This document shows positions 27,583-64,000 of a stretch of 64,000 nucleotides of DNA, piece after piece. The stretch is from Elusimicrobiota bacterium (GTDB lineage Bacteria > Elusimicrobiota > Endomicrobiia > CG1-02-37-114 > JAHJSO01), in NCBI GenBank assembly GCA_043826435.1, contig JBDRQF010000053.1, forward strand, positions 896-64,895. Direction: 5' to 3'. The notes below the pieces were generated by a model that saw only the letters and a list, made by a program, of their open reading frames with translations, did no database searches and was not told the DNA's origin. The position numbers were made by a program, and so were the translations under genes. The number at the start of each line of letters is the position of its first letter. Position 1 is the first letter of the stretch.

Positions 27583-27617
27583 GAATACCGGCAGCAATCA
27601 ACATGGAGGAGATTTAA

Positions 27618-33545: not shown

Positions 33546-33581
33546 TGATTTTCTACCTCTACAGTAGTTTCTTGCTCACTA

Positions 33582-36857: not shown

Positions 36858-36887
36858 ATGTTACACTTCCTTTATCCCAAGCGGTAA

Positions 36888-37265: not shown

Positions 37266-37396
37266 ATTGAATTTTTCGCCTGTATTGTTTTAAAATTTTT
37301 TTAATCACGATATAATATTTGATTGAAAGAAGGAATATAAATAGCATTTTCACCTGTACTGAAAACTTTTCCAGCATACAATTCTTTTATTGGTAA

Positions 37397-38119: not shown

Positions 38120-38189
38120 AAGCGTTCCTTGACCTTTATTGATTAGAGAAATAAATCAAATTCACAATAACGGAATTATCTATTAAAAT

Positions 38190-39524: not shown

Positions 39525-39765
39525 CTGTGAATAACCCCCTAAGTTATTGCCAAACATCTATAGTTCTTCTTTGACCTTTCTGGTAAATGACTGCCAGTGG
39601 GATAAACGTCTTGATATAATTTTACAATACTTAAATCATTTTGTCAAGTACACCGGATAACAGTACACAGGATATCTGTAATGTCTTTATCTTTTTCCGA
39701 CGATTTTTTGCACAAAATTTTACAATAAAAAAGGATAGCCCCCGCCAGGATGTCATGTTGATTTT

Positions 39766-42658: not shown

Positions 42659-42702
42659 AAAAACTGTCGGCTAAGAGTTACGCCATTCATGTCCGAGGTA
42701 AT

Positions 42703-44507: not shown

Positions 44508-45639
44508 TCATTTTGCTAACAATATGTTTCCACTGATATTTTTCTTCAATAAGTTTTCCACTGTTCTTTCCGAGCATTATTCTTTTTTGAGAATTGTTTA
44601 ACAATTCAATAACAGCATTAGCAAATGCAAGAGGGGTTTCCGCAAACACAATGTTATGATTGTTTTCAACCTCAATTCCTTCACAAGCATTTCTTGTTGC
44701 CACCACAGGAAGCCCGAACGCGAGTGCTTCTAAGATTTTATTTCTAATCCCGAGACCGCTTCGTATCGGGGCAACAAAGATACTGGAATTTTTTAAATAA
44801 TCGTAGATATTACTAACATAACCTGTAACAATTATGGACTTATCTTTAACAGCGAGGGCTGAAACTTTTTTTGACGGATTTCTGCCCACTATATAAAATT
44901 TAACATTTTTTATTTTATTTTTTATTTTTGGATAAATTCTTTCAACAAAATATAAAACAGTATCAACATTTGGAAAAAATGACATATCCCCGGTAAAGAT
45001 AAGGGTTTTGTTATTTGGCGAAACGCCTGATGGAAAACTTTCAGTATCTACCCCAGAAGGAACTATATAAACCTTCTTGTTCTTATATCTTTTTAATATA
45101 TAATCTCTTGCTTCCTCGGAGACCACAAAAAAATATTTATAATGAGCGTAAAATTTTCTATCTGCGAGATAAAACCTGGGTATTCTTAAAAGTTTTATTA
45201 ATTTTCTTAAAATATTACATTCATACCAGACCTCATACCATGCACCCTTCAACCCACAAGCCCATAAATCTATAATTAGAGGTATATCTTTAACATTTAC
45301 AAAATACTCGGCCATTTGAAATTTATGAACATGGATTAAATCATATTTATTCTTGCCAAAGATATCATTTACTACGGTCTCAAATTTTTTGTCTTTGCTG
45401 TACGCCTTCAGTAAAAAAAGATTCTTTAGACGCGATGTAACATTGTCCCGACATTCAACAGTATGGATGTTATCCACAAGGTCCTTAATTTCGTCCGTTA
45501 TTTCTGCGGAAGGTTCAGCAAAAGTGAGCAAGTCCACATCCACCTTTTCTTTTTTTAGATATTTCAACTGATGATACATTCTTGAACCACCACCGCCGAG
45601 AAGATGAGGGGGGCCAGGTGTAACAAAAAGTATTTTCAT
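44461..45639 (-). CDS. GT4-family glycosyltransferase
   Basis: 'GLGIRNKILEALAFGLPVVAT' is the GT4 C-terminal E-x7-E region. Confidence 0.65.
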   Translation of the reverse strand: MKILFVTPGPPHLLGGGGSRMYHQLKYLKKEKVDVDLLTFAEPSAEITDEIKDLVDNIHTVECRDNVTSRLKNLFLLKAYSKDKKFETVVNDIFGKNKYDLIHVHKFQMAEYFVNVKDIPLIIDLWACGLKGAWYEVWYECNILRKLIKLLRIPRFYLADRKFYAHYKYFFVVSEEARDYILKRYKNKKVYIVPSGVDTESFPSGVSPNNKTLIFTGDMSFFPNVDTVLYFVERIYPKIKNKIKNVKFYIVGRNPSKKVSALAVKDKSIIVTGYVSNIYDYLKNSSIFVAPIRSGLGIRNKILEALAFGLPVVATRNACEGIEVENNHNIVFAETPLAFANAVIELLNNSQKRIMLGKNSGKLIEEKYQWKHIVSKMIEYYNEILNSDNLKR

Positions 45640-46766
45640 TGTAGCGCTCTCTTAAAAACTTCTAAAGTTTCTCTGGCTGTTTTTTCCCAACTAAAAAATT
45701 TGGCACGGTTAATGCCTTTAAGACCTAATTCTTTTTTTAATTGTCCATCATTTAAAACTTTAAGTATAGCGGTTAAAATTTCTTCTTCGTTTAATGGGTT
45801 CACCAATATCCCGGCATCACCGACAACCTCCGGAATAGAAGTTGTATTAGAAGCAATCACAGGCACTCCACAAGCCATCGCTTCTACCACTGGGAGGCCA
45901 AACCCTTCATACAGGGAAATAAATACAAACATCTCGGCACCGCTATAAATATAAGGCAAATCCTCATCAGGAATATAATCCAAAACCAATATTTCTTCTT
46001 GTAGATTTAATCTGTGAATTGTTTCTATAATTTCTTGGCCCCAATATTTCTTTCCACAAAGAACCAATTTGTGCGGTATTCCATGAACCCTCTTGAGTTT
46101 TTCAAAAACATTTACCAATCTATGCAGGTTTTTATGTGGTCCGAGGTTGCCAACATAAAGTATATATCTTTCATCTATCTTGTATTTTCTTAAGACAGCT
46201 ATAATCCTCTCTTTATCTTCAATCATGTTAAAAATTTCATCAGCAGCAAGCGGAATAACAACTATTCTGTCTGGTTGAACATCATAATATTTACATAAAT
46301 CGTTTTTCGTATATTCTGAAATAGTTATCAAATATTTTGACCTTTTAATTGTATTTTTGAGACGTAAATCAAATATTTCTCTGTGTTCTTTATACCCGTC
46401 ATATTTCATTGTGGTAATATCATAAACCACTGAAACAATCTGACATTTCTTAAATACAGGAGAAAAATAAATTGTAGAAAAATAAATATCCGGATTACCA
46501 AAAAGTTTTTTTGTTAACGGCATACAAATATTTTCCCTGGTCCAAAAAAACTCTAAAATTCTATTAGGTATTCTAATTTTAGATAACAACACATTGGATG
46601 GAAAACTAAAATTATCTATGAGATTATTTTTTTTCACCCCAATCCTGAAAGATAAGGTATAGTGGTTTTCACTATCAATACTGAAAATATGTTTTAAAAC
46701 AGAATTCAAATATGATCTTCCACCTGCTTGACCAAGCAGAGGAAGTGCATCAATTGCTATTTTCAT
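45636..46766 (-). CDS. GT4-family glycosyltransferase
   Basis: 'EGFGLPVVEAMACGVPVIAS'. Confidence 0.7.
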   Translation of the reverse strand: MKIAIDALPLLGQAGGRSYLNSVLKHIFSIDSENHYTLSFRIGVKKNNLIDNFSFPSNVLLSKIRIPNRILEFFWTRENICMPLTKKLFGNPDIYFSTIYFSPVFKKCQIVSVVYDITTMKYDGYKEHREIFDLRLKNTIKRSKYLITISEYTKNDLCKYYDVQPDRIVVIPLAADEIFNMIEDKERIIAVLRKYKIDERYILYVGNLGPHKNLHRLVNVFEKLKRVHGIPHKLVLCGKKYWGQEIIETIHRLNLQEEILVLDYIPDEDLPYIYSGAEMFVFISLYEGFGLPVVEAMACGVPVIASNTTSIPEVVGDAGILVNPLNEEEILTAILKVLNDGQLKKELGLKGINRAKFFSWEKTARETLEVFKRALQ

Positions 46767-48042
46767 CCCAATTCCTCATCTCTTTAAAATCTAAAATTAA
46801 ATTGTTCGGGGAAAATACAACTTTTTTTTTCAATACACGATAAAAAATATAGCAACACAAACTAAAACCAAATATTTGTGTAAAAGCCGTTGCTATGGCG
46901 GCGCCAGACGGTCCAATTTTAGGAATTAACAGTAAATTTAAAGCGATATTCAGGAACAGATTAAATATTGCAACCATTAAAATTTTTTTTTGTTGATTTA
47001 TTGCAATAAATATACTACCAAAGATGATATTTGCGAACAAGAAAGGAACGCCTATCAACAAATAGTTAAAAACACTCACTGAATCTTTGAATTTCAAAGA
47101 TAAAAACGATAAAATGAATACTCTACCGAATAAAACAAATATTAAAAGAATTGCTACGCCAAGCAAAAATATTCCCGTTAAAGTTACTCTGATTAACGCG
47201 GCAAATCTTTTCATATCATTGGAATATTTAGAAATCAGAGGAAAAACGACCGAATTGACAACCGCTGGGAAGAACAATAAAAAATTATAAAATTGCAAAG
47301 CGCCATTGTATATTCCGACTTCGTTTTCTGATTTAAGAAACATCAACATTAGCGTGTCAATCTTTGTATATAACAGAGAAATTATTACTATCAAAAACAA
47401 GGGCATTGACTCTTTTAATAAAAACTTAATTTTCTCGTAGGAGGGCTTATAAATAGGAGTAACAATTCTTCTGCCGATTACAAACGAAATTGTGCTTACA
47501 ACATATTCATTAAAAACTTGAAATAGAAAATAATAAACAAAATCTAATTTTAAAACTATAGATATTATTATCTGCAGTAAAAAAAGCAACTTCTTGAAAT
47601 TGTTGAATATAACGAGGTACCATATTTTTAATTCTGAGTAATAGACCGAATTAACGGCGGTAATGGGGTATACCAAAAGTATAAAGGAATACAGAATAAC
47701 ATAAATTTTTTTTGTATTATCCAAAAAAATACTTGAAAATAATAATATTATTATAAAAGTAAAAAATGTTAAAAATGTTCTAAGCAAAATAACATTTCCT
47801 AAAAACCCCCCTCCATTTTTTTTATCTTTAGAAAGTTCTCGCGTCAAAATAGGAGACATTCCTATATCAGCAATTGGAGAAAATATTGAGATAAAACTGA
47901 AAACAAACCAGTATATGCCAAATTCTTCTACTGATAAATACCGCGCTAACAATGAAATAGTAGCGATTGAAAGTAATGTCTCAGGTATTTTTCCAAAAAT
48001 CTGCGACGATATATTAGCAAAAACTACTTTTGTGAATTTCAT
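46750..48042 (-). CDS. wzx: Wzx-like oligosaccharide flippase (MOP superfamily)
   Basis: 12 or more predicted TM helices. N-terminal 'ISSQIFGKIPETLLSIATISLLARYLSVEEFGIY' is typical of the polysaccharide-biosynthesis protein family. Confidence 0.6.
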   Translation of the reverse strand: MKFTKVVFANISSQIFGKIPETLLSIATISLLARYLSVEEFGIYWFVFSFISIFSPIADIGMSPILTRELSKDKKNGGGFLGNVILLRTFLTFFTFIIILLFSSIFLDNTKKIYVILYSFILLVYPITAVNSVYYSELKIWYLVIFNNFKKLLFLLQIIISIVLKLDFVYYFLFQVFNEYVVSTISFVIGRRIVTPIYKPSYEKIKFLLKESMPLFLIVIISLLYTKIDTLMLMFLKSENEVGIYNGALQFYNFLLFFPAVVNSVVFPLISKYSNDMKRFAALIRVTLTGIFLLGVAILLIFVLFGRVFILSFLSLKFKDSVSVFNYLLIGVPFLFANIIFGSIFIAINQQKKILMVAIFNLFLNIALNLLLIPKIGPSGAAIATAFTQIFGFSLCCYIFYRVLKKKVVFSPNNLILDFKEMRNWDENSN

Positions 48043-48819
48043 TTATTTTCTTGCCTTTATCACACACACACCATTGACCCCACAAATTGAAGGCGCATTT
48101 TCCTTCTCTAATTCGTCCGACTTAGAGACATTCCAATATTTATTATCTGTTCTTTTATAGTAAAGTTCTTTCTCAATTTTAAAACCTTCCAATAATTTCA
48201 AAATCCTATCTTTATCATATACCCTGTAGTTTTTTGTTATCATGTTTTTGCCAAAAGGAACTGAAAGTATAAATATTCCATTTTCTTTTAATAGCCCATA
48301 AACTTTTTTTGCTACCATCATATCTCCATCAATATATTTTTCAGAACCATATACTTCCAACCCGATGTGTTCTAATACCGATATTGCAACGACAGCATCA
48401 AACTTCTCATTAAAATCTATACAATTTAAATCACCTTTAATAAATGTCAATCTATTGTGTGAAATATCATAGTCCCTGATATCTACCCCAAAAACTTCAT
48501 AACCAATGCTTGCCAGTTCCAATGCCTCATAACTGCCGCTACATCCAAACACTAATACTTTGCTGCCAAATGGTATATCTAATAATCTGAACAAGAGAGG
48601 ATACTCTACGATTCTTTCTGTCACATAAAAGTCAAAGTGTTTTGGTAACTTCTTCCGCCATAAAAATTCAAAGACACCACGCAATCTAAAAAAAATATTA
48701 TTGGGTGCTTTGTAATAATATACCAGGGGAAAACTTTCATATGGATGTTCAAAAAACCTATGCTGGATAAAAAGTTGCAAAGATAGAAATTTTTTGCATT
48801 TTTTTATTATATTTGTCAT
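48043..48819 (-). CDS. Class I SAM-dependent methyltransferase
   Basis: 'VLVFGCSGSYEALELA' and 'FDAVVAISVLEHI'. Confidence 0.6.
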   Translation of the reverse strand: MTNIIKKCKKFLSLQLFIQHRFFEHPYESFPLVYYYKAPNNIFFRLRGVFEFLWRKKLPKHFDFYVTERIVEYPLLFRLLDIPFGSKVLVFGCSGSYEALELASIGYEVFGVDIRDYDISHNRLTFIKGDLNCIDFNEKFDAVVAISVLEHIGLEVYGSEKYIDGDMMVAKKVYGLLKENGIFILSVPFGKNMITKNYRVYDKDRILKLLEGFKIEKELYYKRTDNKYWNVSKSDELEKENAPSICGVNGVCVIKARK

Positions 48820-50225
48820 AATTTTTTCCCCCTTATAGTGTAAATCTCAGGTAATCTGAGTACGATAGCAGTCAAAAACCAGAATGGCCCCATGATCCTT
48901 ATAATGATAAAGGTATTCACGGCAACAGATTGAAAAATTAAGGCGATTAACGCCGAGAAAAGCCCCAGCGCAAGACCCTTAGCAAGCCAGTCATCAATTG
49001 TGTTGAAAATTTTAATGGCATTTTTCCCGACGGAATACATCAGCCATATAAAAGCCAGGAGTCCGACAATTCCTGTTTCTCCAAGAATCAGAGGAAACAT
49101 GGTATCAACAAGCCCTACGCCTGTTAATCCATGACCCATCAGAGGTTCTCTCGGAAGCCACACAAAGAAGGCCTTTTTCCAACTTTCAACCCTTGCAAGG
49201 GCGGATGCTTCCCTTACCCTTATTCCGCCGACTGCCGTTTGCTCGTCGGTCCCTGCAAATGTTTCCTGTATTCTGCCAAGGACATCCTGTGTTGGTTTCG
49301 GGAATAAAATTGGAGAAAACAACAGCCCAGTTATAAAAATCATTATCAATAACAGTTTTCTTTTTTGTGCGAGCAGGACAACGCTCATGCACATCGGAAT
49401 AAATGCAAAGAATGAGGCGCGGGAGAATGTGTATGCAAGGGTAGGCAGCGCAAAAACAAACAAACCCATAAACAATATCGCATATTTTGTGGTGGGGGCA
49501 TAACAGAAAAGCCCCAACAGGACGGACATAACTATCAGGAGGTAGCCCCCGAGGGATGCGGACTCACCTGTCCCGCTAACGGGGTCAAAGTCAAAGGGCG
49601 CATAAATCCTGCCAACCCTGCCGATGAGCGTGTATCCGTACAGGTTGACGATAATAAAGGTTATCAGTCCCGCGATAAGGAGGTGTTTAACCTGGCGGGT
49701 ATCCCTGACGATATTTGCGGTCATAATGAACAGAATGAAATATTCAATATATTTCAGGAGATAAAAGAATGATTTTACCGGTTTAATATAACCGAGGACA
49801 ATTCCCCGGGCAGTGAAAAGGACGCATATAAGCGTGTAAATGAAAATCTGGCGGTTGATTGGCGTTCGGACAAAAAGGGCCATTTCCTTTCTTATCGCCA
49901 TGTGCACAAGCCAGACGACGAAGAGCGCCAGCAATATAAAATCGTCGTACCTGACCACGACGGACCTGCCGGGGAGCTGGGCGAGCGGGATTTCAGGGGA
50001 GAGGAGCATTGAGAATACCAGAGTGACGAGTCCGTATTGAATGTTCAGGAAAGATATGAAAATGAATGCGAGGCCGAGGATGAGCGCGAACAAAAAATGA
50101 ATTTTTATGTTGACGATTATTACGCCCGCCAGAAACGCCAGCAGGATGACTGCAAAAAACATTATGAGGGGGGTTGAATAAACCGGCATTTCAGTCATTA
50201 TACAAAAAAGATTTTTTTTAATCAA
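48816..50225 (-). CDS. Wzy/O-antigen-ligase-family (Wzy_C) polytopic membrane protein, putative polymerase
   Basis: About 11 TM helices with a large loop. The arrangement resembles O-antigen polymerase/ligase family proteins and it sits next to the Wzx gene. Confidence 0.5.
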   Translation of the reverse strand: MIKKNLFCIMTEMPVYSTPLIMFFAVILLAFLAGVIIVNIKIHFLFALILGLAFIFISFLNIQYGLVTLVFSMLLSPEIPLAQLPGRSVVVRYDDFILLALFVVWLVHMAIRKEMALFVRTPINRQIFIYTLICVLFTARGIVLGYIKPVKSFFYLLKYIEYFILFIMTANIVRDTRQVKHLLIAGLITFIIVNLYGYTLIGRVGRIYAPFDFDPVSGTGESASLGGYLLIVMSVLLGLFCYAPTTKYAILFMGLFVFALPTLAYTFSRASFFAFIPMCMSVVLLAQKRKLLLIMIFITGLLFSPILFPKPTQDVLGRIQETFAGTDEQTAVGGIRVREASALARVESWKKAFFVWLPREPLMGHGLTGVGLVDTMFPLILGETGIVGLLAFIWLMYSVGKNAIKIFNTIDDWLAKGLALGLFSALIALIFQSVAVNTFIIIRIMGPFWFLTAIVLRLPEIYTIRGKKL

Positions 50226-53241: not shown

Positions 53242-54369
53242 TCAGTCGGCAATCTGTCTGCCTGTAAGCATAAGCAGAACCACGACAAGGAAAAATACGG
53301 TTGCCTGTACGATTAGTATTAAAGAGCCGGTTGTGCCCGCGTCCCGTATAACAAGCGCCCCCAGTCCCAGTGACAAACTCAGCAAGACAATAAAACCCAC
53401 GCTCCGAGGTATTGAGAATCCCATTTTCATAAGACGGTGGTGAAAGTGATCTTTGCCGACATACTCCAGCCACTGCCGGACATTCCGGACCCGCCCGTTT
53501 TTTATGCGGGAGATTGTTGTGTAAATCATGTCAAATATAGGTATGCCGAGAATCAGCAACGGGGTTGACAACGCCACCACGGGGTTGTTTTCCGCCCAGC
53601 TACCCATAACCCCTATTCCGGCGAGCACGAACCCGATAAAGGTTGAGCCGGAATCGCCTAAAAATATTTTTGCGGGGTTCCAGTTGAAAAATAAAAATCC
53701 GGTGCAGGCCCCGGCCAGCGCGATGCACAAAAAACCCAGGAAGGTCTGTTCGGTCGGCATGGCTATGAGGAAGAACAACAGGGAACACATTACGCCGAAA
53801 GAGGAAACAAGCCCGTCAATGCCATCCAGAAAATTCACCGCATTGGCGATGCCGATAAACCACAGGACGGTTATAATTGCCTCAAGCAGTTTCTCCATAG
53901 GCCAGTGCGACGGGATGAAGGTGATGGACACCCCGCTTTTTATAACTATAAGTGAGGCGAGTATTTGCAGTGCAATTCTCGGGACAGCGCCCAGCGGGTA
54001 AACGTCGTCAAGTAAACCGAGAATGAAAATTATCGTCCCGCCGATCAGGAGTCCCATCAGTTCTCTTGAAAATTGCAAATTACGGAGCAGCGTGAACAGG
54101 AACGCCAGGAAAATGGCTATGCCCCCTATCCTCGGCGTCGGAAGAATATGCACCTTCCTCCCGTCAGGGTGGTCCAGGAGTTTCAGTTTGTGGGCTGAGT
54201 ATATGGCTATTATTGTAAAGAATATGCTCATGAAGAAAGAGAGAAGGAAAACATACAGCCATCGGATTCCCAGTATGTAAGCCCATCTCCCGCCCGTCGG
54301 GGAAAGAAGCATAAGCAGGATAGTGCCTGTGAGTATGAGATATATCTTGTGGGAGGTTTTTACGTTCAT
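53242..54369 (-). CDS. wecA: WecA/MraY-family polyprenyl-phosphate N-acetylhexosamine-1-phosphate transferase (initiating transferase)
   Basis: 'IANAVNFLDGIDGL' and 'DDVYPL'. About 10 TM helices. Confidence 0.7.
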   Translation of the reverse strand: MNVKTSHKIYLILTGTILLMLLSPTGGRWAYILGIRWLYVFLLSFFMSIFFTIIAIYSAHKLKLLDHPDGRKVHILPTPRIGGIAIFLAFLFTLLRNLQFSRELMGLLIGGTIIFILGLLDDVYPLGAVPRIALQILASLIVIKSGVSITFIPSHWPMEKLLEAIITVLWFIGIANAVNFLDGIDGLVSSFGVMCSLLFFLIAMPTEQTFLGFLCIALAGACTGFLFFNWNPAKIFLGDSGSTFIGFVLAGIGVMGSWAENNPVVALSTPLLILGIPIFDMIYTTISRIKNGRVRNVRQWLEYVGKDHFHHRLMKMGFSIPRSVGFIVLLSLSLGLGALVIRDAGTTGSLILIVQATVFFLVVVLLMLTGRQIAD

Positions 54370-54983
54370 ATATTAAAGTCCAGGGCAAGACGCAGGGGTG
54401 TAAACCCCTCGGCGTATTTTACCCTATTCTGGAAACCACGGAAAATTGCACAGGAGCGGACGCTCTCCAGTATGGAAAGGCCCGCAACCTTTGTGGCTTG
54501 GACCTGTGAGCGGTGCATTCCGAGGATGAGAAATTTTTGTTTTATCGTTTTCCTGACGTCAACAAAAACGCTCGGCGAAAAGTTTATTGATGTCGGGACC
54601 TCGTAAAACAGGACATTCCGGGCATATCTTGTAGCGGTGATTGTCGCCTGTGCAACGTTCCTGTGGTCCTGGTGGGTGTCTTCCGGGTAGTGTCCGAAAA
54701 TCAGGTTTGGAGATGTTTTCTTTATGATATGTTCAATGTTGTTTATCAGTTCCTTTGTTAACTGGATTTTCGTATCGCCAAAATTCCCCGTAAAAAGTTT
54801 CGCGCCCAGGCGGGCAGCCACTTTCTTCTGCTCGGAAAAACGCTTTTCCGGGTCGCCGCCCACCTCGCCTTTTGTGAGGACGAAAAGGAAGATTTTGTGC
54901 CCCGCGTTTTTGAATTTAATAAGCGTCCCGCCGCATCCGTATTCCAGGTCGTCAGGGTGCGAACCGATAGCAAGGATATTCAT
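54366..54983 (-). CDS. PIG-L/LmbE-family N-acetylglucosaminyl deacetylase
   Basis: 'ILAIGSHPDDLEYGCGGTL' and 'HQDHRNVAQA'. Confidence 0.7.
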   Translation of the reverse strand: MNILAIGSHPDDLEYGCGGTLIKFKNAGHKIFLFVLTKGEVGGDPEKRFSEQKKVAARLGAKLFTGNFGDTKIQLTKELINNIEHIIKKTSPNLIFGHYPEDTHQDHRNVAQATITATRYARNVLFYEVPTSINFSPSVFVDVRKTIKQKFLILGMHRSQVQATKVAGLSILESVRSCAIFRGFQNRVKYAEGFTPLRLALDFNI

Positions 54984-55015
54984 TTTTTATTAACCTCCGT
55001 ATCAATCCCATTTGC

Positions 55016-55831
55016 TCACAAAGACAAACTCTGGATTGTCTCTTTTATCGTTTCGGTATTTATGCCTGAAATTTCCTTGCCGTAACCGACCAGCAGGGCG
55101 GAATCGCAAATCTGGTTTATCCTTCGGGGAATCCCGCCCGAACGTTCGTATATAATGGGGAACACGCCCTGCTCAAAAATCCGATTCTGCGCCCCGGCGA
55201 TCGTCAGGCGGTGTTCTATGTAGCGGGGCAGTTCTTCACGGGTCAGGGCTTCCAGATGAAACTTCATCGCAATCCTCTGGCTCAGTTGTTTTATGCCCTC
55301 TATCCTTTCCTTTAATTCAGGTTGGCCGATAAGCAGAAGTGTAAGCAGGAATTTGTTTTCCGACTGGAAATTCAGCAACAACCGTATCTCCTCAAATATG
55401 TTCTTGTCTTCAATGACGTGCGCCTCGTCTATTACGACTACGGTTTTTTTGCCGTCAGCGAGATTGTTTTTCAGGGTGTTTTCCATGGCGATTAGAACGT
55501 CCGCCTTGCGCGTCGGAGGCGGCTGAATTCCCAGGTTATGGGCAATCATCTTTAACAATTCAAGGTCATCCAGACGGGGGTTATTTATGATTGCAAGTTT
55601 ATATACATCCTGTTCCAGTTCTTTCATCAGCGCCCTTGAGAGAAGGGTTTTCCCACACCCATAAACACCGGTGAGCAGTCCCGCCCCCTTGCTTTCTCTG
55701 ACGACATAAAGCATCCGGGCAAGCCCCTCCTCGTGTTGCTTTGAGTTGTAAAAAAATTTTGGGTCGGGCGTGTTTTCAAAAGGCCTTTCTTTAAGGCCCC
55801 AGTATTCTTCATACATAGTTATCCGTCCCAT
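55016..55831 (-). CDS. ExeA-like AAA ATPase (general-secretion protein A / PEP-CTERM-locus ATPase type)
   Basis: 'YEEYWGLKERPFENTPDPKFFY' (ExeA N-terminus). Walker A 'GVYGCGKTLL'. 'VVVIDEAH'. Confidence 0.6.
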   Translation of the reverse strand: MGRITMYEEYWGLKERPFENTPDPKFFYNSKQHEEGLARMLYVVRESKGAGLLTGVYGCGKTLLSRALMKELEQDVYKLAIINNPRLDDLELLKMIAHNLGIQPPPTRKADVLIAMENTLKNNLADGKKTVVVIDEAHVIEDKNIFEEIRLLLNFQSENKFLLTLLLIGQPELKERIEGIKQLSQRIAMKFHLEALTREELPRYIEHRLTIAGAQNRIFEQGVFPIIYERSGGIPRRINQICDSALLVGYGKEISGINTETIKETIQSLSL

Positions 55832-55842
55832 GTGTGCATGTC

Positions 55843-55990
55843 ATTGCGAGGAGCATCAGCGGTTGCGAGGCGAAGCCGAAGCAAACCCCTTGTCTTATGT
55901 GTGCAACTTCATCCGTATATCTGCACATCCCTCATGCTAAATATTGCGCATGCTGTTTGAGATTGCCACGCCCTTCGGGCTCGCAATGAC
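55843..55990. repeat. MITE-like element bounded by inverted termini TGTCATTGCGAGG ... CTCGCAATGACA (about 148 bp)
   Basis: The 5' end matches the forward units at 6.2 kb. The 3' end 'GAGATTGCCACGCCCTTCGGGCTCGCAATGACA' is identical to 6305-6338. Confidence 0.8.
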
Positions 55991-55995
55991 ACCTT

Positions 55996-56694
55996 TCAGT
56001 GAATAGTTACCCCGCCTCTCATTATGATGTCCCTGCTTTCGTTGCCGCAGTTAAACAATAAGTCAATGGCTGACATAAACGGTAAAAATGTTCCGAAGCA
56101 TTGCCTGTATTCAGGGTGGACGAATTTCTGGTAAACCAGTTTTATGCCGTTTTTTTCAAACAGACCCTCGTCCATGTAATTCATCCCGCCTGCGCCGGAG
56201 AGGTACGTATCTGCCCCAAAATTTTTGCAGATGTCTATTATCCTTTGAGTACTTGTGGTTTCCAGGTTCAATCCGGAACTGAAATGCACCGGCGTTTTTA
56301 TGTCAAAACACCCCGTTAAATATCTTACCGTTTCAACGTTTAAGTCCATAAGGGTTGTCCATTTTTTATTCAAGAGTTCCGAAAAAAAGCCATGGTGCCC
56401 GGTGAAGAAAGGGGCGGCTGCATAAGAGTGCTCAATCGTTTTTATGTGGTCATTTGCCCAGCCCGCATCGTTGTCTATTTCCACCTCTGCGATTTTTTGC
56501 ATATATCTGGATTTGGACACAATAGGGACCGTGAGCCAGAGCCAGCCGTTCCTCGTTTTTATCTTATTGCGGTTCTGGAATTCTCTTTTCTTATACTGGA
56601 CGTCGTCAAGAAAAACAAAAACGTCGCTCTTTGCAATTTTATGAAAATACCCCAACCATGGCATGTATTGCGGCTGATGTACGGAAAGGATCAT
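55996..56694 (-). CDS. wbqC: WbqC-family protein (glycan-biosynthesis associated)
   Basis: 'ILSVHQPQYMPWLGYFHKIAKSDVFVFLDDVQY...EFQNRNKI' is the WbqC signature. Confidence 0.65.
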   Translation of the reverse strand: MILSVHQPQYMPWLGYFHKIAKSDVFVFLDDVQYKKREFQNRNKIKTRNGWLWLTVPIVSKSRYMQKIAEVEIDNDAGWANDHIKTIEHSYAAAPFFTGHHGFFSELLNKKWTTLMDLNVETVRYLTGCFDIKTPVHFSSGLNLETTSTQRIIDICKNFGADTYLSGAGGMNYMDEGLFEKNGIKLVYQKFVHPEYRQCFGTFLPFMSAIDLLFNCGNESRDIIMRGGVTIH

Positions 56695-56695
56695 C

Positions 56696-58147
56696 TCATT
56701 TCATTATACCAAAAAAAAGAGGGTTTGTCACTACCCTGCTGTTATTTTCCGCTTTTACTTCCACCCTGCAGTAATTTTTGCCCCGCAGGATGCCTGAATG
56801 CTTTTGCATGTCAACCTCAATGGCCGCGGGGAGTCGTTTTTTAAGGGTTTCCACGACTATGCCGTTCAGCACTATCTTTATTTCGGCATTGTGTTTGCCT
56901 GTGTCGTCCGCATCAACCACAAATCTTAGCGAAGGATAGGTAGCCGTTTGCAATTCCCCGCCCATTGTCGCCGATACCCCTTTTGACCCCGGCCTGCCGG
57001 GGCCGGGGGACGAATAAATTTCAATCTCTCTTAGAAATACCTGCCAGTCGTCCGGTCGCCATTTGCATACAACGTAAAACCTGCCGGTCCTGATAGCGTC
57101 CAAAACCTCTTCCCGGTTTAGTGAATTAACGAACAGTATGTTCCTGGCCATGTTCATGTAGGTGCCGTTATAGCCGTCGGAGATATAGTCCAGTTCGCCG
57201 AACGCCCACACGGGTTTTTTCCTTTTGTTCTCCTGGTATTCGTTTAATACCCTGTCCCACAGTCCACCCGGAACGCCGACGATATCGTCCCCTTCCCAGA
57301 AGTAGGCAAAGCCGGTGTAGTTTCGCGTTTTCACCAATGAATCGGGGTATGGTTTTGTCCGGACTTTCACGCCGTTTAACTCAGTCGCATTTTCATAATT
57401 CCGCGCCTCGGGGTGCGCCCAGAAGACGATTCCTTTCTGCGAAACCACATAGTCAATGAGCGACTGGTATGGCCCCTCGCCCCCGTCTTTGTATTGACTG
57501 AAATCCGGGGATTTGAATGGAAAGTTATTGACGATAAACACCGCTGAAATCAACAGCACAAAAACCGCGGGGACGGGGCGTTTTTTAACCAGTAGCATGC
57601 CCAATAATAGCGTCGCAACCGGCCAGAGAAGAATTATCCTGAATTTTTCAGCGCCCCTGTTGCCGAGGACAGGCAGGTTTTTAAACTGTTCCGGGTCATC
57701 AAGCCCGGTTACGACCAGGTGTTTGTGGGCATTGTTCAGCGTAAACTCCTTTGTGAACGGCGAGCCGCTCCAGTAGTAATGCGGGGTGGACTCAAAGCCA
57801 GGCATGATTATTATGTCCGGATATTTTTCTTGTAAACGTTTTATCTCGTTTAAATATTTTTCATAGCCGATCTGGAAAATGGAATTTTTCGCGTGCGACC
57901 TCTTCAGTATGTTGCTCAAAGGACGGACGCCGTATTCAGCCATGACAATGTCGTGGTCAGTGAGGATTATAACGTCAATCTTTTCTTTCCGCGCCAGGAG
58001 GACCAGTTCTTCAAGGGAGTGTCTTCCGGATGAACTGAAGGTTGAGTGGATGTGGACAATGCATGAGACCTGCCGGTATGCATGCGGCTCCACGGGGGCG
58101 ATACAGGACGCCAGAATACACAATACGAAGCCCTTAAATATTTTCAT
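56696..58147 (-). CDS. PHP-domain metal-dependent phosphoesterase with a signal peptide and an internal TM segment
   Basis: Probable start 'MKIFKGFVLCILASC'. 'IVHIHSTFSSSGRHSLEELVLLARKEKIDVIILTDHD' is the PHP N-terminal motif. Confidence 0.5.
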   Translation of the reverse strand: MKIFKGFVLCILASCIAPVEPHAYRQVSCIVHIHSTFSSSGRHSLEELVLLARKEKIDVIILTDHDIVMAEYGVRPLSNILKRSHAKNSIFQIGYEKYLNEIKRLQEKYPDIIIMPGFESTPHYYWSGSPFTKEFTLNNAHKHLVVTGLDDPEQFKNLPVLGNRGAEKFRIILLWPVATLLLGMLLVKKRPVPAVFVLLISAVFIVNNFPFKSPDFSQYKDGGEGPYQSLIDYVVSQKGIVFWAHPEARNYENATELNGVKVRTKPYPDSLVKTRNYTGFAYFWEGDDIVGVPGGLWDRVLNEYQENKRKKPVWAFGELDYISDGYNGTYMNMARNILFVNSLNREEVLDAIRTGRFYVVCKWRPDDWQVFLREIEIYSSPGPGRPGSKGVSATMGGELQTATYPSLRFVVDADDTGKHNAEIKIVLNGIVVETLKKRLPAAIEVDMQKHSGILRGKNYCRVEVKAENNSRVVTNPLFFGIMK

Positions 58148-60275
58148 AGATGCGTTCAAGCAGATAAACCGTCCTCTCAATTCCGAATTCCGGCAAGCCG
58201 TCCGCCATCTTATTGATTTTCCTTTTTGCATTTTCGCCGAGTATTTTTGCCAGGTGGGGTTTTTCAATCAGCGTTATCACCGCCGAGGCGATTCCATCCG
58301 CGTCTGCAGGGGGGACAAGCAGCCCGGTTTTGCCGTCCTGAACAATGTCGGGGATGCCCTGCACCCTGGTGGCGACGACCGGTTTTGAGAATGTCTGTGC
58401 AAACAACAGCGTTTTCCCCATACCCTCGTTCTTAGAGGGCTGGATGTATATGTCCATAACCGCAAGAAAAGGGAATACGTCGTCCTGCATCCCGGTAAGT
58501 ATAAAGTCGTTTTCCATATCCTGCCTTTTAATCCTGCCCTCCAGGGCAGCCCTTTCCTCCCCGTCGCCGACAATCAGAAAAACAACCTTTTGCCGGTTAA
58601 CCTGCATCTTTTCCTTTATTATTTTTGCCGCTTTAACGAAGTATTTAACTCCTTTTACGGGAGCCAGCCGGGCGATTGTCCCTATGACAACTGCCCCTTC
58701 GGGAATTTTTAGTTTAGCCCGTAGCCCGCCCGCATCGTCCCGGTATGCTTTTATTTTTGATTCATCGGGATAGAGAATCCCGGCGGGTATTATTTCCCAC
58801 TGCCCTGCCTTGCCGACGCCGAAGCCGGTTGACTCGTTTTTTTCCCCGTCCGTAAGGGCTATAAGACGGTGCGTGAGCCGGGCGGTTAACCGTTCAATAA
58901 GAGTAAAAAATGCCGTTTTCAGTCCGCCGAAATAACCGTAGAAAACATGACCGTGTGGAGAATGTATAACTTTCATATCGCGGCATCCATCTTCCGTTAG
59001 CCGTGCAAGATAACCCGCCCACCGGCCTAAAATCCCGGCTTTGGAAGAATGCGTGTGTACAATATCGGGTTTTTCCGCCCTGATAAGGGCAAGTATTTTC
59101 CAGAAGGCGGCAATGTCTTTCACCGGCGATATTTTCCGCACAAGTTCGTTTATGCAGAATGTCTTTTCCGGCAGGTTGCCGTCGGGGGGCATGTCTCCGG
59201 AATACCCGTGGACGACGATCGTTTCAAATTTATCCCGGTTGATTCTTTCACACACGAGCAACAGGTTTTCGGAAGAGCCGCCCCTGTCAAGACGAGTTAT
59301 AATCTGCATTATCCTTTTCTTTTTACCGGGTGGACGGGCGGATGGGGGACAAACGGACGGTTTACGGGCGGACGCAATAAGCGAGGGCGCCAGGAGTATC
59401 CTGCCGTGCGTGAGGGAGCGGACAGTTTCAGCCGAGAAGTACATAAAGATTTTTGAAAGCGCCACAAACCATCTACCCAGGAACCTGCTTGTTTTATAGG
59501 GGTCACCAGACGTCGCGGGAGAGTTCAGGATTTTAATTTTTTCAAAGCGCACCAGCGTCAATAGTGTTTTCAGGGAGTTTGCGTCAAACCCGAAATTGTG
59601 AAGCACGGAAGGGTAAAGTCCGGCCTTTTCCAGTATGGGCGATAATTTTTCAACGAATACATGAAAATTTACGTTATGGAAACGGATAAACAAAAAGCCG
59701 CCGGGTTTTAATAGACGGTAAATCTCCCTTAAATCAGCCGCGGGGTCCTGCAGGTATTCCAGCGCTCCCCACATTGCTACGCAATCATAATGGCCGGAAG
59801 GAAGGTTTAACTCACGCACAGGTTTGTCATGTACCCTGATGCCATACGTATTTTGCGCAAACTCAGTTGCCTTTTTTGATAATTCTATGCCCTCAACTTC
59901 TTTCCAGCCGGAGTCCTTCGCCATTTTCAGGAAATATCCATGGCCGCAGCCGATATCCAGCAGATAGCCCTTCTCAGCGACATTCCGTTCTATAATCCCA
60001 AGCCCCCTGTTGAAAAGACGGGTTTTTGAACCAAGCCACACGTCCTCTTTGTCTTCCTGCGACGGTAACTCGGCGAAATACTCCGCTATTTGATTCGCCG
60101 GAGGGAGGATGCTTTTGAACGTCAGCCCGCAGTTCTTGCAACGGAGATATTCGCGGCCCGGCGTTTTAAGTGCAACCGTAATTTTTTCCAAACCGCAGAC
60201 GTTACACTTGCTTAATTTCATATAAGATGTTTTCAACCCCGTCCGTAAATTTTTCCCAGGAATATCTTTGTTCAA
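58134..60275 (-). CDS. Fusion protein: N-terminal zinc-ribbon class I SAM methyltransferase plus C-terminal GT4 glycosyltransferase
   Basis: 'CNVCGLEK...CKNCGLTF'. 'LLDIGCGHGYF'. 'VAMWGALEYL'. GT4 region 'EGMGKTLLFAQTFSKPVVATRVQGIPDIV'. Confidence 0.65.
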   Translation of the reverse strand: MNKDIPGKNLRTGLKTSYMKLSKCNVCGLEKITVALKTPGREYLRCKNCGLTFKSILPPANQIAEYFAELPSQEDKEDVWLGSKTRLFNRGLGIIERNVAEKGYLLDIGCGHGYFLKMAKDSGWKEVEGIELSKKATEFAQNTYGIRVHDKPVRELNLPSGHYDCVAMWGALEYLQDPAADLREIYRLLKPGGFLFIRFHNVNFHVFVEKLSPILEKAGLYPSVLHNFGFDANSLKTLLTLVRFEKIKILNSPATSGDPYKTSRFLGRWFVALSKIFMYFSAETVRSLTHGRILLAPSLIASARKPSVCPPSARPPGKKKRIMQIITRLDRGGSSENLLLVCERINRDKFETIVVHGYSGDMPPDGNLPEKTFCINELVRKISPVKDIAAFWKILALIRAEKPDIVHTHSSKAGILGRWAGYLARLTEDGCRDMKVIHSPHGHVFYGYFGGLKTAFFTLIERLTARLTHRLIALTDGEKNESTGFGVGKAGQWEIIPAGILYPDESKIKAYRDDAGGLRAKLKIPEGAVVIGTIARLAPVKGVKYFVKAAKIIKEKMQVNRQKVVFLIVGDGEERAALEGRIKRQDMENDFILTGMQDDVFPFLAVMDIYIQPSKNEGMGKTLLFAQTFSKPVVATRVQGIPDIVQDGKTGLLVPPADADGIASAVITLIEKPHLAKILGENAKRKINKMADGLPEFGIERTVYLLERIYENI

Positions 60276-61410
60276 CGAATCCCCTGCACGTCTGTCTGAT
60301 AATTTCAGGGTCTGAATTTTTGTTCCTGTTGATAAAGTCCCTTATGCCGGTATATATGTGATGATTTTCAGTCCCGTTAAAAATAAGGCGTTTATCAAGC
60401 GGGGCAAGGACTTCGGGTATTGCCCCGACGGGCGTCCCCATCACGGGTGTTCCGCATGCAAGCGACTCAAGTATGACGAGCCCGAAGCCCTCCAGGGATT
60501 TCGTGGGCAGGACAAACAGGTCGGCCGCGCGATAGTATGCCGGAAGTTTTTCCTGCGGGATAAACCCCGTAAAACGAACGGACTTTTCAATTTTTAAATC
60601 ACCCGCCATTTTTTTCAGTTTTGTTTCAAGGTCTCCCCGGCCGCCTATGACGAGAAAAATGATATCCGGAAACTCCGAATAAAGTTTTTGCATTGCCAGG
60701 AGAAGGTTTTCAAGCCCCATCCTTGATTTAAGGTTCCGGACGGTCAGGAGCAGAAATTTATCCTGTGGCAAATTGAGCCCCTTCCTTATTTCCATTTTTT
60801 CGTTTTGCGAATGAGGCGGGTTGAATTTTTTCAGGTCTATGCCGCCCGGGATTAAACGCACCTTGCTGTCAGGCGGGCAGTACAACTCCTTTAGTTTTGA
60901 TTTGATGTAATCGCTCAAAACGACTACGGCATCGGCAGTTGAAACTGCAATTTTCTCCATCAACCGGCGCAATAGGACGCCTGCGGCATGCGTGATAAAT
61001 GGCGTTCTTTTGCCGGAACATTTTAACAGGTACTCTTCAGGCCAGGGTGAATAGAAAAAATGTACGTGCGGTATTTTTTTACGGAACAACCATGGCATTA
61101 ACCCTGATGCTGAGAACGGCTGGTGCGTAAGGAGGACATCAACCGGTTTTTCTTTATTTATCTGCCTGAAATACAGGGAGGATGAAAAAATGTTCCTGCC
61201 GAATCTCCACACAGGGATCCCGTCAATTTCTTCTTTCCTCTTTAACCCTTTTGCACCGCAGGTCAGGACGTTTATTGTGTGTCCTCTTTTTGCAAGTCGT
61301 TTGGCAGTTTCCCACATAGCGGTTGCAGCCCCGCCTTCACCGTCGGCAGGGACGGCATCCGAAGTTATCAGGATATTAAACCTTCCGGCTGGTTTTTGTT
61401 TTTCGTTCAT
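60202..61410 (-). CDS. GT4-family glycosyltransferase
   Basis: 'EGFGLVILESLACGTPVMGT'. Confidence 0.7.
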   Translation of the reverse strand: MNEKQKPAGRFNILITSDAVPADGEGGAATAMWETAKRLAKRGHTINVLTCGAKGLKRKEEIDGIPVWRFGRNIFSSSLYFRQINKEKPVDVLLTHQPFSASGLMPWLFRKKIPHVHFFYSPWPEEYLLKCSGKRTPFITHAAGVLLRRLMEKIAVSTADAVVVLSDYIKSKLKELYCPPDSKVRLIPGGIDLKKFNPPHSQNEKMEIRKGLNLPQDKFLLLTVRNLKSRMGLENLLLAMQKLYSEFPDIIFLVIGGRGDLETKLKKMAGDLKIEKSVRFTGFIPQEKLPAYYRAADLFVLPTKSLEGFGLVILESLACGTPVMGTPVGAIPEVLAPLDKRLIFNGTENHHIYTGIRDFINRNKNSDPEIIRQTCRGFVEQRYSWEKFTDGVENILYEIKQV

Positions 61411-62510
61411 TCCGATAGAACCCCGAGTATTTTCTGCGTCATCCTTTCAGGGGTGTATAGCCCTGCCCTTTCAATGCCTTTCCGACGCACTGTTTGCCTG
61501 AGCCCGTTATCCGCAAGGATTTGTTGTAGCCGGTCTCTTATGTCCTGTGTATTATACGGGTCAAAATACATGCAGGCATCTCCTAATATCTCAGGCATTG
61601 AAGATGTGTTTGAACTTACAACAGGGCATCCGCATGCCATCGCTTCAAGCGGGGGCAGTCCGAACCCCTCGTAGAGCGAGGGGAAAACGAACAAATCTGC
61701 GGCTGAATAAAGAGATGGGACGTCCTCTTCCTGCACGTAACCCGGGAAGACAATTTTGCCGGCACCTGCAACTGTCCCTGCTGTGGTTGTCCCGTTTCCC
61801 CCGGCAAGCACCAGTGAATATTCATCCTTGATGTTATCAGGCAGATGTTTGTATGCATCTGCCAGCCGCGATAAATTTTTGTGCGGGGAAAAGTTTCCAA
61901 GGTAAAGTATAAATTTTCCCTGCAGTTTGTATTTTGACCTTATCTTTTCTATTTCATCCGGGCTCGCCGGTTTAATGTTTTTATTGACAGAAAGGTATGC
62001 GACCTCAATTTTTTCAGGCGACAGTTTGAGTTTTGAAATCAGATCCTTTTTGCTGTTTTCCGAACATGTCAGGACCTTTTTCGCTTTCTTTCCCGCGGTA
62101 GATATGAAATTTTTTAAATAAATGTTATAGAGATATTTCCCGCTGTAGGGTTGAGTAATTAAATAGGTTGTATCAAACATGGAGATTACTGCCGGAATTT
62201 TCAGGAATAATGGCATTTTATAGTATGGCGAGAAAAAGACATCACATCCGCTCCGGCTCATTGCATTCTTTAATTTTACTTGGTCCCACCAGAGCGTACA
62301 TTTTTCCGGTATTATTATTTTTTTGAATGATTTGTTGTTCAAAAAATTATATTCAAAACAAGTATGGTTGTTGCCGAAAAGGACAAAGGTATTACCGCTG
62401 CCCGAAGGGGAAAGAGAAATCCCTGTAAGGAGATTAAACAGCATCCGGCCTATGCCCGTCATGTTTCCCGTAAGTTCCCTTGCATCAATTCCTACGTTCA
62501 TCGCTATCAT
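61407..62510 (-). CDS. GT4-family glycosyltransferase. The probable start is at 'MIAMNVGIDARELTG', and the ORF-track N-terminal 92 aa are likely untranslated.
   Basis: 'EGFGLPPLEAMACGCPVVSS'. The family-typical N-terminus begins at the internal Met. The upstream 5' region overlaps a divergent promoter. Confidence 0.6.
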   Translation of the reverse strand: MIAMNVGIDARELTGNMTGIGRMLFNLLTGISLSPSGSGNTFVLFGNNHTCFEYNFLNNKSFKKIIIPEKCTLWWDQVKLKNAMSRSGCDVFFSPYYKMPLFLKIPAVISMFDTTYLITQPYSGKYLYNIYLKNFISTAGKKAKKVLTCSENSKKDLISKLKLSPEKIEVAYLSVNKNIKPASPDEIEKIRSKYKLQGKFILYLGNFSPHKNLSRLADAYKHLPDNIKDEYSLVLAGGNGTTTAGTVAGAGKIVFPGYVQEEDVPSLYSAADLFVFPSLYEGFGLPPLEAMACGCPVVSSNTSSMPEILGDACMYFDPYNTQDIRDRLQQILADNGLRQTVRRKGIERAGLYTPERMTQKILGVLSE

Positions 62511-62569
62511 TATCTCAAAAAAAACGGGTTTTGTCAAGGAATTTCCGGTGGCGATGCGACAACAATCTA

Positions 62570-62598
62570 TTGACAAAAGGCAAAAATTGAAGTATAAT
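62570..62598 (+). promoter_or_regulatory. Perfect sigma70 consensus promoter TTGACA-17 nt-TATAAT upstream of the PilX-like gene
   Basis: TTGACA at 62570-62575, 17-nt spacer, TATAAT at 62593-62598. About 72 nt of leader containing the hairpin CGGGGA-(10 nt)-TCCCCG. GAGGTG sits 7 nt before the ATG at 62677. Confidence 0.55.
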
Positions 62599-62676
62599 AT
62601 TATCGGGAAACGCAGAGATTTTTGCCGGGTGTCGGGGAGACGCCGGGTTCCCCGTAGGGACGACTGAGGTGCAAGA

Positions 62677-64000
62677 ATGATTGCCAATATGAAACTTACC
62701 GGTAAAAGGCAGGCATTTAATAAAGGCCAGGCAATGGTCCTGGTGATAATAATACTGCTGTTTTTTCTGGTAATGGCGGAACTCATTGTGTTTCAATTGC
62801 GTAACGAGAGTATATGGACAGTCAAGGAAAAAAAGGAAGTCCTTGCGTTTAATGTCACCGATTCAGGACAGGAACGCGCCTACTGGAAGATTACGGAGAC
62901 GACGGACGGATGGGATAAACTTATTATTGATGCCGCATTCCCATCGGGTTTTGACGGTAATACGGTTTACACGGTGGAGGGGAGGGGCAGGTACAAGATT
63001 CATCTTTCTACGGGTAAGTCGGGGGATGATGACATTGTTGTAGTCAGGACGGCCGGAGAGGACATAGACAGCAGGCAGGCCCGCGGCATAAAGGTTATAT
63101 ATAAACGCTCGGGACTACCCCAGTCGGCAATAAACGTAAGGGGAGGGCTGGGTGTAACCGGGAATGTGAGGATTCACTGGGGCTGTATCGTGAGTAAATC
63201 CGGGGATATAAACCTTACAGGTAACGCCAATAAGTGGTGGCCAAGGAAGTTTGCAGGGCTTGGGTATCTGGTTTCTCCGAGGGATGCAAGTGCAACAGAC
63301 ACCCCGCACATCGGCCCTGACAAACCCAGGAATGACAATCCGGATATTTTGTTGGAAGATGAATACAAGGAATGGTCTTCAAACGGTTACCGTGAAGCGG
63401 AGACGGTAGAGGTAGGCCTGTCAACATATGCTGCCAGAGCACAAACATACGGGCCACCACCAGGGATAACAACAAACGGGGCAGGTACCTGCACCGGAGC
63501 ATATTTTGAGGGCTATACCACTGTCTCCTTTCCCAACAACTATCTTGACACCCGTTCTACTGCGTGTTATTACATTAAAGACGCAGATGTTAGTTTTCCC
63601 GCGAATGCATCCATTACGGCATTGGACAATGCTGCCGGAGCAGTTAGCGACATTGTTTTCATTGTAGAAAATGGTGATTTAGACCTACCTCAAAACCCCC
63701 CGGCAGGTAGCCCCGGTAAAACCAATTATACTGTCCGGGTTCCAACAACCTGCTGGAAAGAATATCAAACAGAAGCATCGGGGTTGTCACCCTATGGCGG
63801 ACTCGGTCGTGGAGATACCGCCGCTATAAACGAATATCCCGGTGACCAGGGATACAGGACGTCCGGCGGGACTTTTGACCTGAACAACGTTATATTCCAC
63901 GGTTTGTTGTATGTTGGCGGTGACTTGGGGCAACAAGGGGGCGGCACCAAGAATATGGTAGGCGTGGTAATTGTTAAGGGGGGGGTTAATGATAATGGAA
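62677..64000 (+). CDS. Large PilX-N-like (type IV pilus minor-pilin/pseudopilin-like) protein, 3' end cut by the window edge. It is not in the ORF track because no stop occurs before the window end.
   Basis: Hand translation gives 'MIANMKLTGKRQAFNKGQAMVLVIIILLFFLVMAELIVFQL...'. This is a short charged N-region then a hydrophobic helix, as in PilX N-terminal domains. The frame stays open for 441 or more codons. Confidence 0.45.
   Translation, partial: MIANMKLTGKRQAFNKGQAMVLVIIILLFFLVMAELIVFQLRNESIWTVKEKKEVLAFNVTDSGQERAYWKITETTDGWDKLIIDAAFPSGFDGNTVYTVEGRGRYKIHLSTGKSGDDDIVVVRTAGEDIDSRQARGIKVIYKRSGLPQSAINVRGGLGVTGNVRIHWGCIVSKSGDINLTGNANKWWPRKFAGLGYLVSPRDASATDTPHIGPDKPRNDNPDILLEDEYKEWSSNGYREAETVEVGLSTYAARAQTYGPPPGITTNGAGTCTGAYFEGYTTVSFPNNYLDTRSTACYYIKDADVSFPANASITALDNAAGAVSDIVFIVENGDLDLPQNPPAGSPGKTNYTVRVPTTCWKEYQTEASGLSPYGGLGRGDTAAINEYPGDQGYRTSGGTFDLNNVIFHGLLYVGGDLGQQGGGTKNMVGVVIVKGGVNDNG

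Follow-up and report, generated by a model that had tools for sequence, protein, structure and literature searches.

A probable K-type tip pilin with a predicted beta-solenoid in Elusimicrobiota

The 64,000-nucleotide stretch of Elusimicrobiota DNA analysed here, referred to as the window, ends inside a gene that very probably encodes the K-type tip subunit of a type IV filament, in the class of PilX, GspK, ComGG and ComZ. This reading draws on a predicted fold that joins a GspK-like pilin domain to a triangular beta-solenoid of the ice-binding type in one chain, the combination that defines the ComZ class, on linkage of the gene to two canonical prepilin genes across related loci, and on a distant homologue that closes a type IV filament operon. 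The architecture and its inferred role are already known from Thermus and the cyanobacteria; what is new is a member in Elusimicrobiota, where it is unannotated.

The gene and its reading frame

The gene assigned to this K-type (PilX/GspK/ComZ-class) minor pilin lies on the forward strand at 62677..64000, which holds codons 1-441 of 482. The assignment takes into account the open frame, two overlapping loci (L001 and L007), 505 representative relatives and a fold model. From ATG 62677 the frame contains 441 sense codons and stays open up to base 64000, where the window ends. An earlier note on this DNA, made from the letters alone, had claimed just such an open-ended gene and had attributed its absence from the list of open reading frames to the want of a stop; translation confirms the first point, and frames that run off an end are indeed not listed. 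The gene is therefore real and was correctly called. The note's proposal to extend the contig recovers the full frame of 482 codons. L007 is 100% identical to the window over 55964-64000 and continues for 1013 bp beyond it, L001 is 99.98% identical, and both place the stop codon 41 codons further on, 125 nt past the window end. Both thus give a protein of 482 aa, found by matching the 441-aa fragment in a word-indexed protein search and identical to the public protein NCBI MFH2070924.1, so that the description of the protein as large does not hold. The protein, whose body had been described as Gly/Thr-rich, is moderately so, with 12% Gly and 8% Thr.

A Shine-Dalgarno sequence, GAGGTG, can be read at 62666..62671 (forward strand), 5 nt before ATG 62677. 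The in-frame ATG at 62689 has none, and 62677 is therefore taken as the start.

Promoter, leader and the divergent glycosyltransferase gene

Upstream of the gene stands a putative sigma-70 promoter at 62570..62598 (forward strand), with a -35 box TTGACA at 62570-62575, a 17-nt spacer and a -10 box TATAAT at 62593-62598. It matches the consensus at 12 of 12 positions, as had been claimed. The 64-kb window has two perfect TTGACA-N16-18-TATAAT sites, where dinucleotide-preserving shuffles predict 0.07, and the match is therefore unlikely to be due to chance. The promoter region of L001 is identical to that of the window at 62570..62598, and the homologue in L002 has an 11/12 counterpart upstream.

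The position of the -10 box predicts a transcription start that would leave a 5' leader of about 72 nt (62605..62676, forward strand). The claim that this leader is structured stands in part. The 6-bp hairpin is present at 62628-62644, but the 86-nt stretch around it has a folding energy of -26.3 kcal/mol, where shuffles average -24.3 (z = -0.65) and 50 of 200 are at least as stable. A search of the leader against Rfam gives no match. In the L002 homologue, which is 51% identical, the -10 box ends 5 nt before the start codon; L002 therefore has no leader, and the leader is not conserved. On these three results a riboswitch or attenuator is rejected, and 62605..62676 is probably not a regulatory element.

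The promoter does sit back to back with the start of a GT4 glycosyltransferase gene (61407-62501, reverse strand; Pfam Glycos_transf_1, 2e-36). The two gene starts diverge 175 bp apart, and the glycosyltransferase gene has its own promoter, an 11/12 match at 62537..62509 on the opposite strand. The public gene call for the GT4 protein starts at TTG 62537 and not at ATG 62501. The window also contains a glycosyltransferase cluster at 53242-62501 and Wza/Wzc-type genes at 26377-29507.

N-terminus and sequence family

The protein begins MIANMKLTGKRQAFNKG-QAMVLVIIILLFFLVMAELIVF, that is, with a short basic leader that ends in Gly and is followed by a hydrophobic alpha-1N of about 20 residues, as in a class III signal. 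The class-III-like leader peptide covers residues 1-17 (MIANMKLTGKRQAFNKG; 62677..62727, forward strand) and would be cleaved after Gly17. The alpha-1 helix follows at residues 18-72 (62728..62892, forward strand), within a single helix that AlphaFold2 predicts over residues 16-72 with pLDDT above 95; its hydrophobic part, residues 19-39, would serve as the membrane anchor and, in the assembled filament, lie in the core. At position +5, where canonical prepilins carry Glu, the protein has Leu, and the N_methyl models (PF07963 / TIGR02532) do not match it.

A profile search, run exhaustively over 1.84 billion representatives, places the protein in a family that counts 505 members at E<=0.001, of which 159 reach E<=1e-30; almost all are 400-500 aa long. 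At least 90% of 72 relatives share Gly17. Among 146 long relatives, 132 show Gly followed by a hydrophobic stretch; among these 132, Glu stands at position +5 in just 1, and Lys or Arg at position -2, directly before the Gly, in 77. The pattern is characteristic of PilX and GspK, tip subunits that lack Glu5, and the missing Glu5 is the exception to be expected of a K-type subunit. The family N-terminus runs from a short basic leader through Gly, often Gln, and about 20 hydrophobic residues to QnEaKWtVKqkkST-AFhLAEAGiDRGyWKL. Where the alpha-1 consensus reads AFhLAEAGiDRGyWKL the window protein has AFNVTDSGQERAYWKI instead, having diverged in the AFHLAEAG motif that is conserved elsewhere in the family.

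The earlier note had likened the N-terminus to PilX or pseudopilin helices. The core of that idea agrees with the fold, the motif and the gene trio described below, but the reason given for it fails, since the HMM check that it proposed (PilX_N, GspH/I/J/K and TadE/G) comes back empty for the window protein even at E<=10. Neither the 441-aa fragment nor the full protein has a match in Pfam, which covers PilX_N, T2SSK and TadE, even at E<=10, or in NCBIfam, which covers the gspH-K models, even at E<=10 or E<=1. PilX_N (PF14341) matches 6 of the 72 relatives weakly at E<=0.1, with a best E of 0.001; TadE (PF07811) has no Pfam match at E<=10 and none among the 72 relatives. PDB sequences searched by phmmer with the single protein, and with the 72-sequence profile, return chance matches only, ComZ being absent at E<=10. 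Aligned by hhalign to E. coli GspK, the family profile reaches a probability of 4%, over 25 N-terminal, hydrophobic columns only. Because sequence searches miss both ComZ and E. coli GspK, the link to them is structural. In public records, NCBI lists relatives as 'hypothetical protein [Elusimicrobiota bacterium]', and a relative appears in one IMG record as 'Tfp pilus assembly protein PilX'.

Predicted fold

An AlphaFold2 model built on the 72-sequence alignment is confident, with a mean pLDDT of 86.9 and a pTM of 0.82. In order along the chain it consists of the helix (16-72), a sheet of four strands (93-144), a long beta-rich stretch (150-447) and one more strand near the end (462-470). In this model the long alpha-1 helix packs on an antiparallel beta-sheet, which is the pilin fold. 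On the DNA, the predicted four-stranded antiparallel sheet of the pilin head occupies 62953..63108 (forward strand), and the predicted beta-solenoid, of the ice-binding-protein type, covers residues ~150-441 at 63124..64000 (forward strand) and continues to ~447 past the window, where the last strand is also encoded. Read only from this order of elements, the solenoid would be inserted between the penultimate and the last pilin strand.

Structure comparison finds ice-binding proteins with scores of 15.6 (7bwx), 15.1 (5uyt), 15.0 (3wp9) and 13.6 (6bg8). ComZ of Thermus thermophilus (6qvi) scores 11.3 with 261 residues aligned, the Streptococcus sanguinis minor pilin PilA (7o5y) 9.8, GspK (3ci0_K) 8.8, XcpX (5vtm_X) 8.4, and tapirins with a related adhesin 6.9-7.8. 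Foldseek gives much weaker matches, to ice-binding proteins only.

Partner pilins and the three-gene operon

The earlier note had suggested looking for flanking pilus genes, and two genes with prepilin motifs do lie directly downstream in L001. The first, 11 nt after the stop codon, encodes an 887-aa protein that begins MNNKSSDYGLSGLTLVEVMVAV (GLSGLTLVEVMVAV...) and carries a CarboxypepD_reg domain (6e-18) and a weak LTD match. The second, 33 nt further on, encodes a 172-aa pilin that begins MPLRKNSGLTLTELVMAV (SGLTLTELVMAV) and scores 23.0 bits with Pfam N_methyl, above the cutoff of 21.2; tmk follows 4 nt later. Both partners carry the canonical Gly / Glu5 prepilin motif. There is no convincing terminator between the genes of the operon, and the trio and tmk are probably co-transcribed from the promoter at 62570-62598.

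Below the model thresholds, the 172-aa pilin matches NCBIfam GspJ (6e-6), and the N-termini of the large pilins, mainly the homologues in L003 and L004, match NCBIfam ComGE, GspI and PilV. These sub-threshold matches, together with gene order, suggest that the large pilin may be I-type and the small one J-type. The assignment is tentative because hhalign, comparing the K, small-pilin and large-pilin profiles with E. coli GspG-K, aligns little beyond alpha-1N.

The same three families stand together in L002, L003, L004 (an Elusimicrobia MAG), L005 and L006. A metagenome scan added 52 further loci, and all loci were searched with HMMs of the three families. A strong K-family gene is found in 49 non-redundant loci; 43 of the 44 K-family loci with room for it contain the small pilin, and where at least 3.3 kb is available on one side, 31 of 33 loci have both the small and the large pilin. 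The commonest order is large pilin, small pilin, K. In the window lineage and in L002 the K gene comes first, which is why the promoter lies directly before it here. The flanks vary: in L002 the trio sits between a PorV-like gene and rpsR-rplI-dnaB, and in L003 it adjoins tmk-holB and a TPR protein. What stands out most in the find is the conserved partnership with a large modular pilin of ~860 aa, although the gene for that pilin is not in the window.

The protein might instead be a beta-helix protein of the surface or periplasm, held by a signal anchor, whose N-terminus only mimics that of a pilin and which enters no filament. This reading has in its favour the lack of a pilin HMM match, the lack of Glu5 and the fact that ComZ itself is not predicted as a PilD substrate (PMC6561018), but it is most improbable given that the predicted model has the whole pilin alpha-beta fold and not merely a transmembrane helix, that linkage to two canonical prepilins is near-universal, and that a homologue stands at the K position of an E-F-H-I-J-K operon.

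Link to filament assembly machinery

Scanning covered 1-39.6 kb and 50.3-62.5 kb of the window and found there no gene for an assembly ATPase, a platform protein, a secretin, a peptidase or a major pilin. In L044 the region 3-9 kb upstream of the first gene of the trio encodes a PilC/GspF fragment, a GspG-like pilin and an A24 prepilin peptidase, with the peptidase gene at ~3 kb. A distant full-length relative of the K protein (hhalign probability 99.1%) is encoded in L058, where the genes run T2SSE ATPase, GspF, GspH (PF12019, above cutoff), I-like, J-like and K-like. The homologue follows I-like and J-like pseudopilin genes, and its place at the end of the E-F-H-I-J-K series puts the family at the K position of a type IV filament set.

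These loci also bear on what kind of filament the subunit would cap. The same tip subunit could belong to the pseudopilus of a type II secretion system, as part of a GspI-J-K tip on the piston that drives folded proteins through a secretin. The order of genes in L058 is that of type II secretion, with a Pfam GspH domain, and the best named match of the small partner is GspJ. Local phmmer searches with E. coli GspD, GspC, GspL and GspM, however, find no homologue, and so no secretin, in any fetched locus. Moreover, an 887-aa CarboxypepD_reg/LTD pilin and a solenoid of ~300 residues would be bulky for the periplasm; such modules better suit an exposed adhesive tip, as in ComZ and in modular pilins such as S. 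sanguinis PilB. Likeness to type II secretion is also shared by the minor pilins of Thermus, which are nevertheless part of pili (PMC6561018). The pseudopilus is therefore unlikely, and the exposed tip of a pilus is more plausible because the modules are bulky.

If the filament is a pilus, its tip might be a ComZ-like DNA receptor that serves natural transformation. One relative has a weak ComGG_2 match, the large pilins have the ComGE matches noted above, and the L058 ATPase carries an HU DNA-binding domain. Set against this, the protein has no detectable sequence similarity to ComZ, and comEA, comEC and dprA are absent from the Pfam annotations of L001-L003 and L005-L007. Cyanobacterial PilX proteins with this architecture occur in both competence pili and motility/EPS pili, so that the fold does not fix the ligand. 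This DNA-receptor role is decidedly unlikely.

The neighbourhood of the gene suggests yet another role, in an Hps-like system of pilus-dependent polysaccharide secretion or recognition tied to the divergent glycan locus. The back-to-back promoters, the glycosyltransferase cluster and the Wza/Wzc-type genes are consistent with such a tie; the cyanobacterial PilX-EPS/HpsA class, which lies in the hps glycosyltransferase locus, shares the fold, and the small pilin matches HpsC weakly (E 0.013). The window protein, on the other hand, matches neither HpsA nor the other NCBIfam Hps models, and adjacency to glycan genes is not conserved, the flanks of the trio in L002 and L003 being free of glycosyltransferases. 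The link to the glycan locus is set aside on this ground and the role itself is very doubtful; because the relatives do not lie beside glycosyltransferases, the neighbouring glycan locus is treated as coincidental.

Proposed mechanism

As a K-type tip subunit, the protein would be made with its short basic leader and held in the inner membrane by the hydrophobic alpha-1 helix, and prepilin peptidase would, by analogy, remove the leader. It would join the 887-aa GspI/PilV-like modular pilin and the 172-aa GspJ-like pilin through their N-terminal helices. The three pilins would form a tip, or priming, complex on which the filament is built, a position and an assembly proposed from the known systems. 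The K subunit would cap the filament because, without Glu5, nothing could be added above it. At the distal end, the ice-binding-protein-like beta-solenoid would form a plug and, probably, a surface for binding. By analogy with ComZ the ligand could be DNA, by analogy with tapirins and PilX-EPS a polysaccharide, or it could be some other surface.

More broadly, and tentatively, type IV filaments throughout the Elusimicrobiota lineage may carry the trio as a self-contained adhesive tip complex that takes the role of PilY1. If true, large modular pilins would make up two of its three subunits: the solenoid-bearing K protein and the ~860-aa Glu5 pilin with CarboxypepD_reg/LTD modules, the third being the 170-aa pilin. 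None of the curated families describes this composition of a solenoid K, a CarboxypepD_reg/LTD pilin and a 170-aa pilin.

Significance

The analysis offers a functional reading for a family of ~500 clusters at 50% identity that has no Pfam or NCBIfam model. It extends the tip-pilin design of ComZ and the solenoid-bearing PilX proteins to Elusimicrobiota, which supports the view of the solenoid-bearing K subunit as a recurrent alternative to PilY1. HMMs of the three linked families could reveal pilus tip operons in uncultured phyla. The find leaves the understanding of type IV filaments unchanged; it is a fairly ordinary but useful annotation lead and will not surprise specialists.

Comparison with known systems

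The closest parallel is ComZ, the tip pilin of the Thermus thermophilus competence pilus (PDB 6QVI), which has a pilin domain like that of GspK and a solenoid like that of an ice-binding protein and is argued to cap the pilus (PMC6561018). It likewise has an atypical N-terminus without Glu5, is encoded beside genuine pilin genes and is of similar size, with 518 residues in the 6qvi chain against 482 aa here. The two proteins come from different phyla and share no detectable sequence similarity, and their partners differ: PilA1-3 in Thermus, a ~860-aa modular pilin and a 170-aa pilin here.

All cyanobacterial PilX proteins have the same architecture, and their solenoid is proposed to be a tip plug that replaces PilY1 (bioRxiv 10.64898/2026.02.12.705559). 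Both PilX-Com and PilX-EPS/HpsA also lack Glu5, and PilX strictly co-occurs with a partner minor pilin (bioRxiv 10.64898/2026.02.12.705559). The partner here, in contrast, is a large CarboxypepD_reg/LTD pilin, and Hps models find no match. PilX-EPS lies in the hps locus, whereas the glycan link of the window is not conserved in relatives.

GspK/XcpX and proteobacterial PilX show the same N-terminal pattern of basic leader, Gly and hydrophobic helix without Glu5, and the L058 homologue is, like GspK, last in the H-I-J-K order. The insertion of GspK is alpha-helical (PMC6561018), whereas that of the window protein is a predicted beta-solenoid; the T2SSK and PilX_N HMMs do not match it, nor does any Pfam or NCBIfam model, which, with the 4% hhalign probability, sets it apart from GspK proper.

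Modular type IV pilins such as S. sanguinis PilB and CofB of ETEC (PMC6561018) present functional modules on the filament by means of a pilin module, a concept that fits both the window protein and its 887-aa neighbour. The module of S. sanguinis PilB is a vWA domain, as opposed to an ice-binding-like solenoid and CarboxypepD_reg/LTD here, and the solenoid appears, from the predicted order of elements, to be inserted and not appended. With the ice-binding proteins (DUF3494) the similarity is at the level of the fold only, at 12-15% identity, with no DUF3494 Pfam match in the window protein or its relatives. Ice-binding proteins are free secreted solenoids, whereas the predicted solenoid of the window protein shares its chain with a pilin fold.

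The large modular pilin and its neighbors

Just past the window end, on the near-identical contig L001, the K-type minor pilin gene is accompanied by a gene for an 887-aa pilin that carries Glu5 (L001 4624–7287) and matches CarboxypepD_reg, LTD, and fn3_3-like domains. Its homologues range from 601 to 923 aa in length, with a median of 859, and almost always adjoin a K gene. No curated model exists for this family, which comprises unusually large modular pilins.

Several relatives show duplications. Tandem duplications of the K gene are present in L003 (8535–11413), L027 (8637–11209), and L038 (780–3402), while a single contig, L028, holds two complete trios of large pilin, small pilin, and K genes, 2 kb apart (378–4868 and 6863–11284). 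A distant homologue of the window K gene belongs to an E-F-H-I-J-K operon in locus L058, which opens with the gene for a T2SSE/PilB-type ATPase (5323–7269). Besides an MshEN domain, this ATPase carries at its N-terminus a DNA-binding domain of the HU type (Bac_DNA_binding, 5e-13).

The divergent glycosyltransferase gene

The GT4 glycosyltransferase gene on the minus strand, divergent from the K gene, has an 11/12 promoter at 62509–62537. Its ATG at 62501 lies 7 nt from the end of the promoter's −10 box and no Shine-Dalgarno sequence precedes it, so the GT4 mRNA may be leaderless. Public gene calls instead place the start at TTG 62537, within the −35 box, which yields a protein of 376 aa as opposed to 364 aa from ATG 62501. 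Inside the same glycosyltransferase cluster, also on the minus strand, is a gene for a 271-aa AAA_22 ATPase (3e-21; 55016–55831).

Low-GC blocks and type IX secretion pairs

At three places in the window (6118–10371, 20348–25902, and 32574–36857), the gene for a large surface protein whose C-terminal domain is of the type IX secretion kind precedes one for a PorV-like outer-membrane protein. Two of the cargo proteins match Por_Secre_tail, one at 5e-10 and one sub-threshold at 5e-4; the other has a sub-threshold CHU_C match (5e-5). The partner in the first pair has only a weak UPF0164 match, and the PorV matches are 2e-8 and 1e-11. The genome probably belongs to Elusimicrobiota.

The sole other perfect TTGACA-17-TATAAT promoter within the 64-kb window, at 15266–15294 on the plus strand, sits immediately 3' of an integrase-core (rve) fragment (14531–15064), and two PMT_2/TPR glycosyltransferase-like genes (16576–20275) lie downstream of it.

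Two blocks, 10001–26000 and 32001–50000, have a GC content of 0.29–0.43, compared with 0.46–0.52 in the sequence flanking both. The first contains Fic-like, Bro-N, and nucleotidyltransferase genes along with an integrase fragment. In the second, the scanned ORFs, those of 32.6–39.6 kb, include genes for a methyltransferase, a CHU_C cargo protein, and a PorV protein. These blocks may be horizontally acquired or hypervariable surface-glycan regions.
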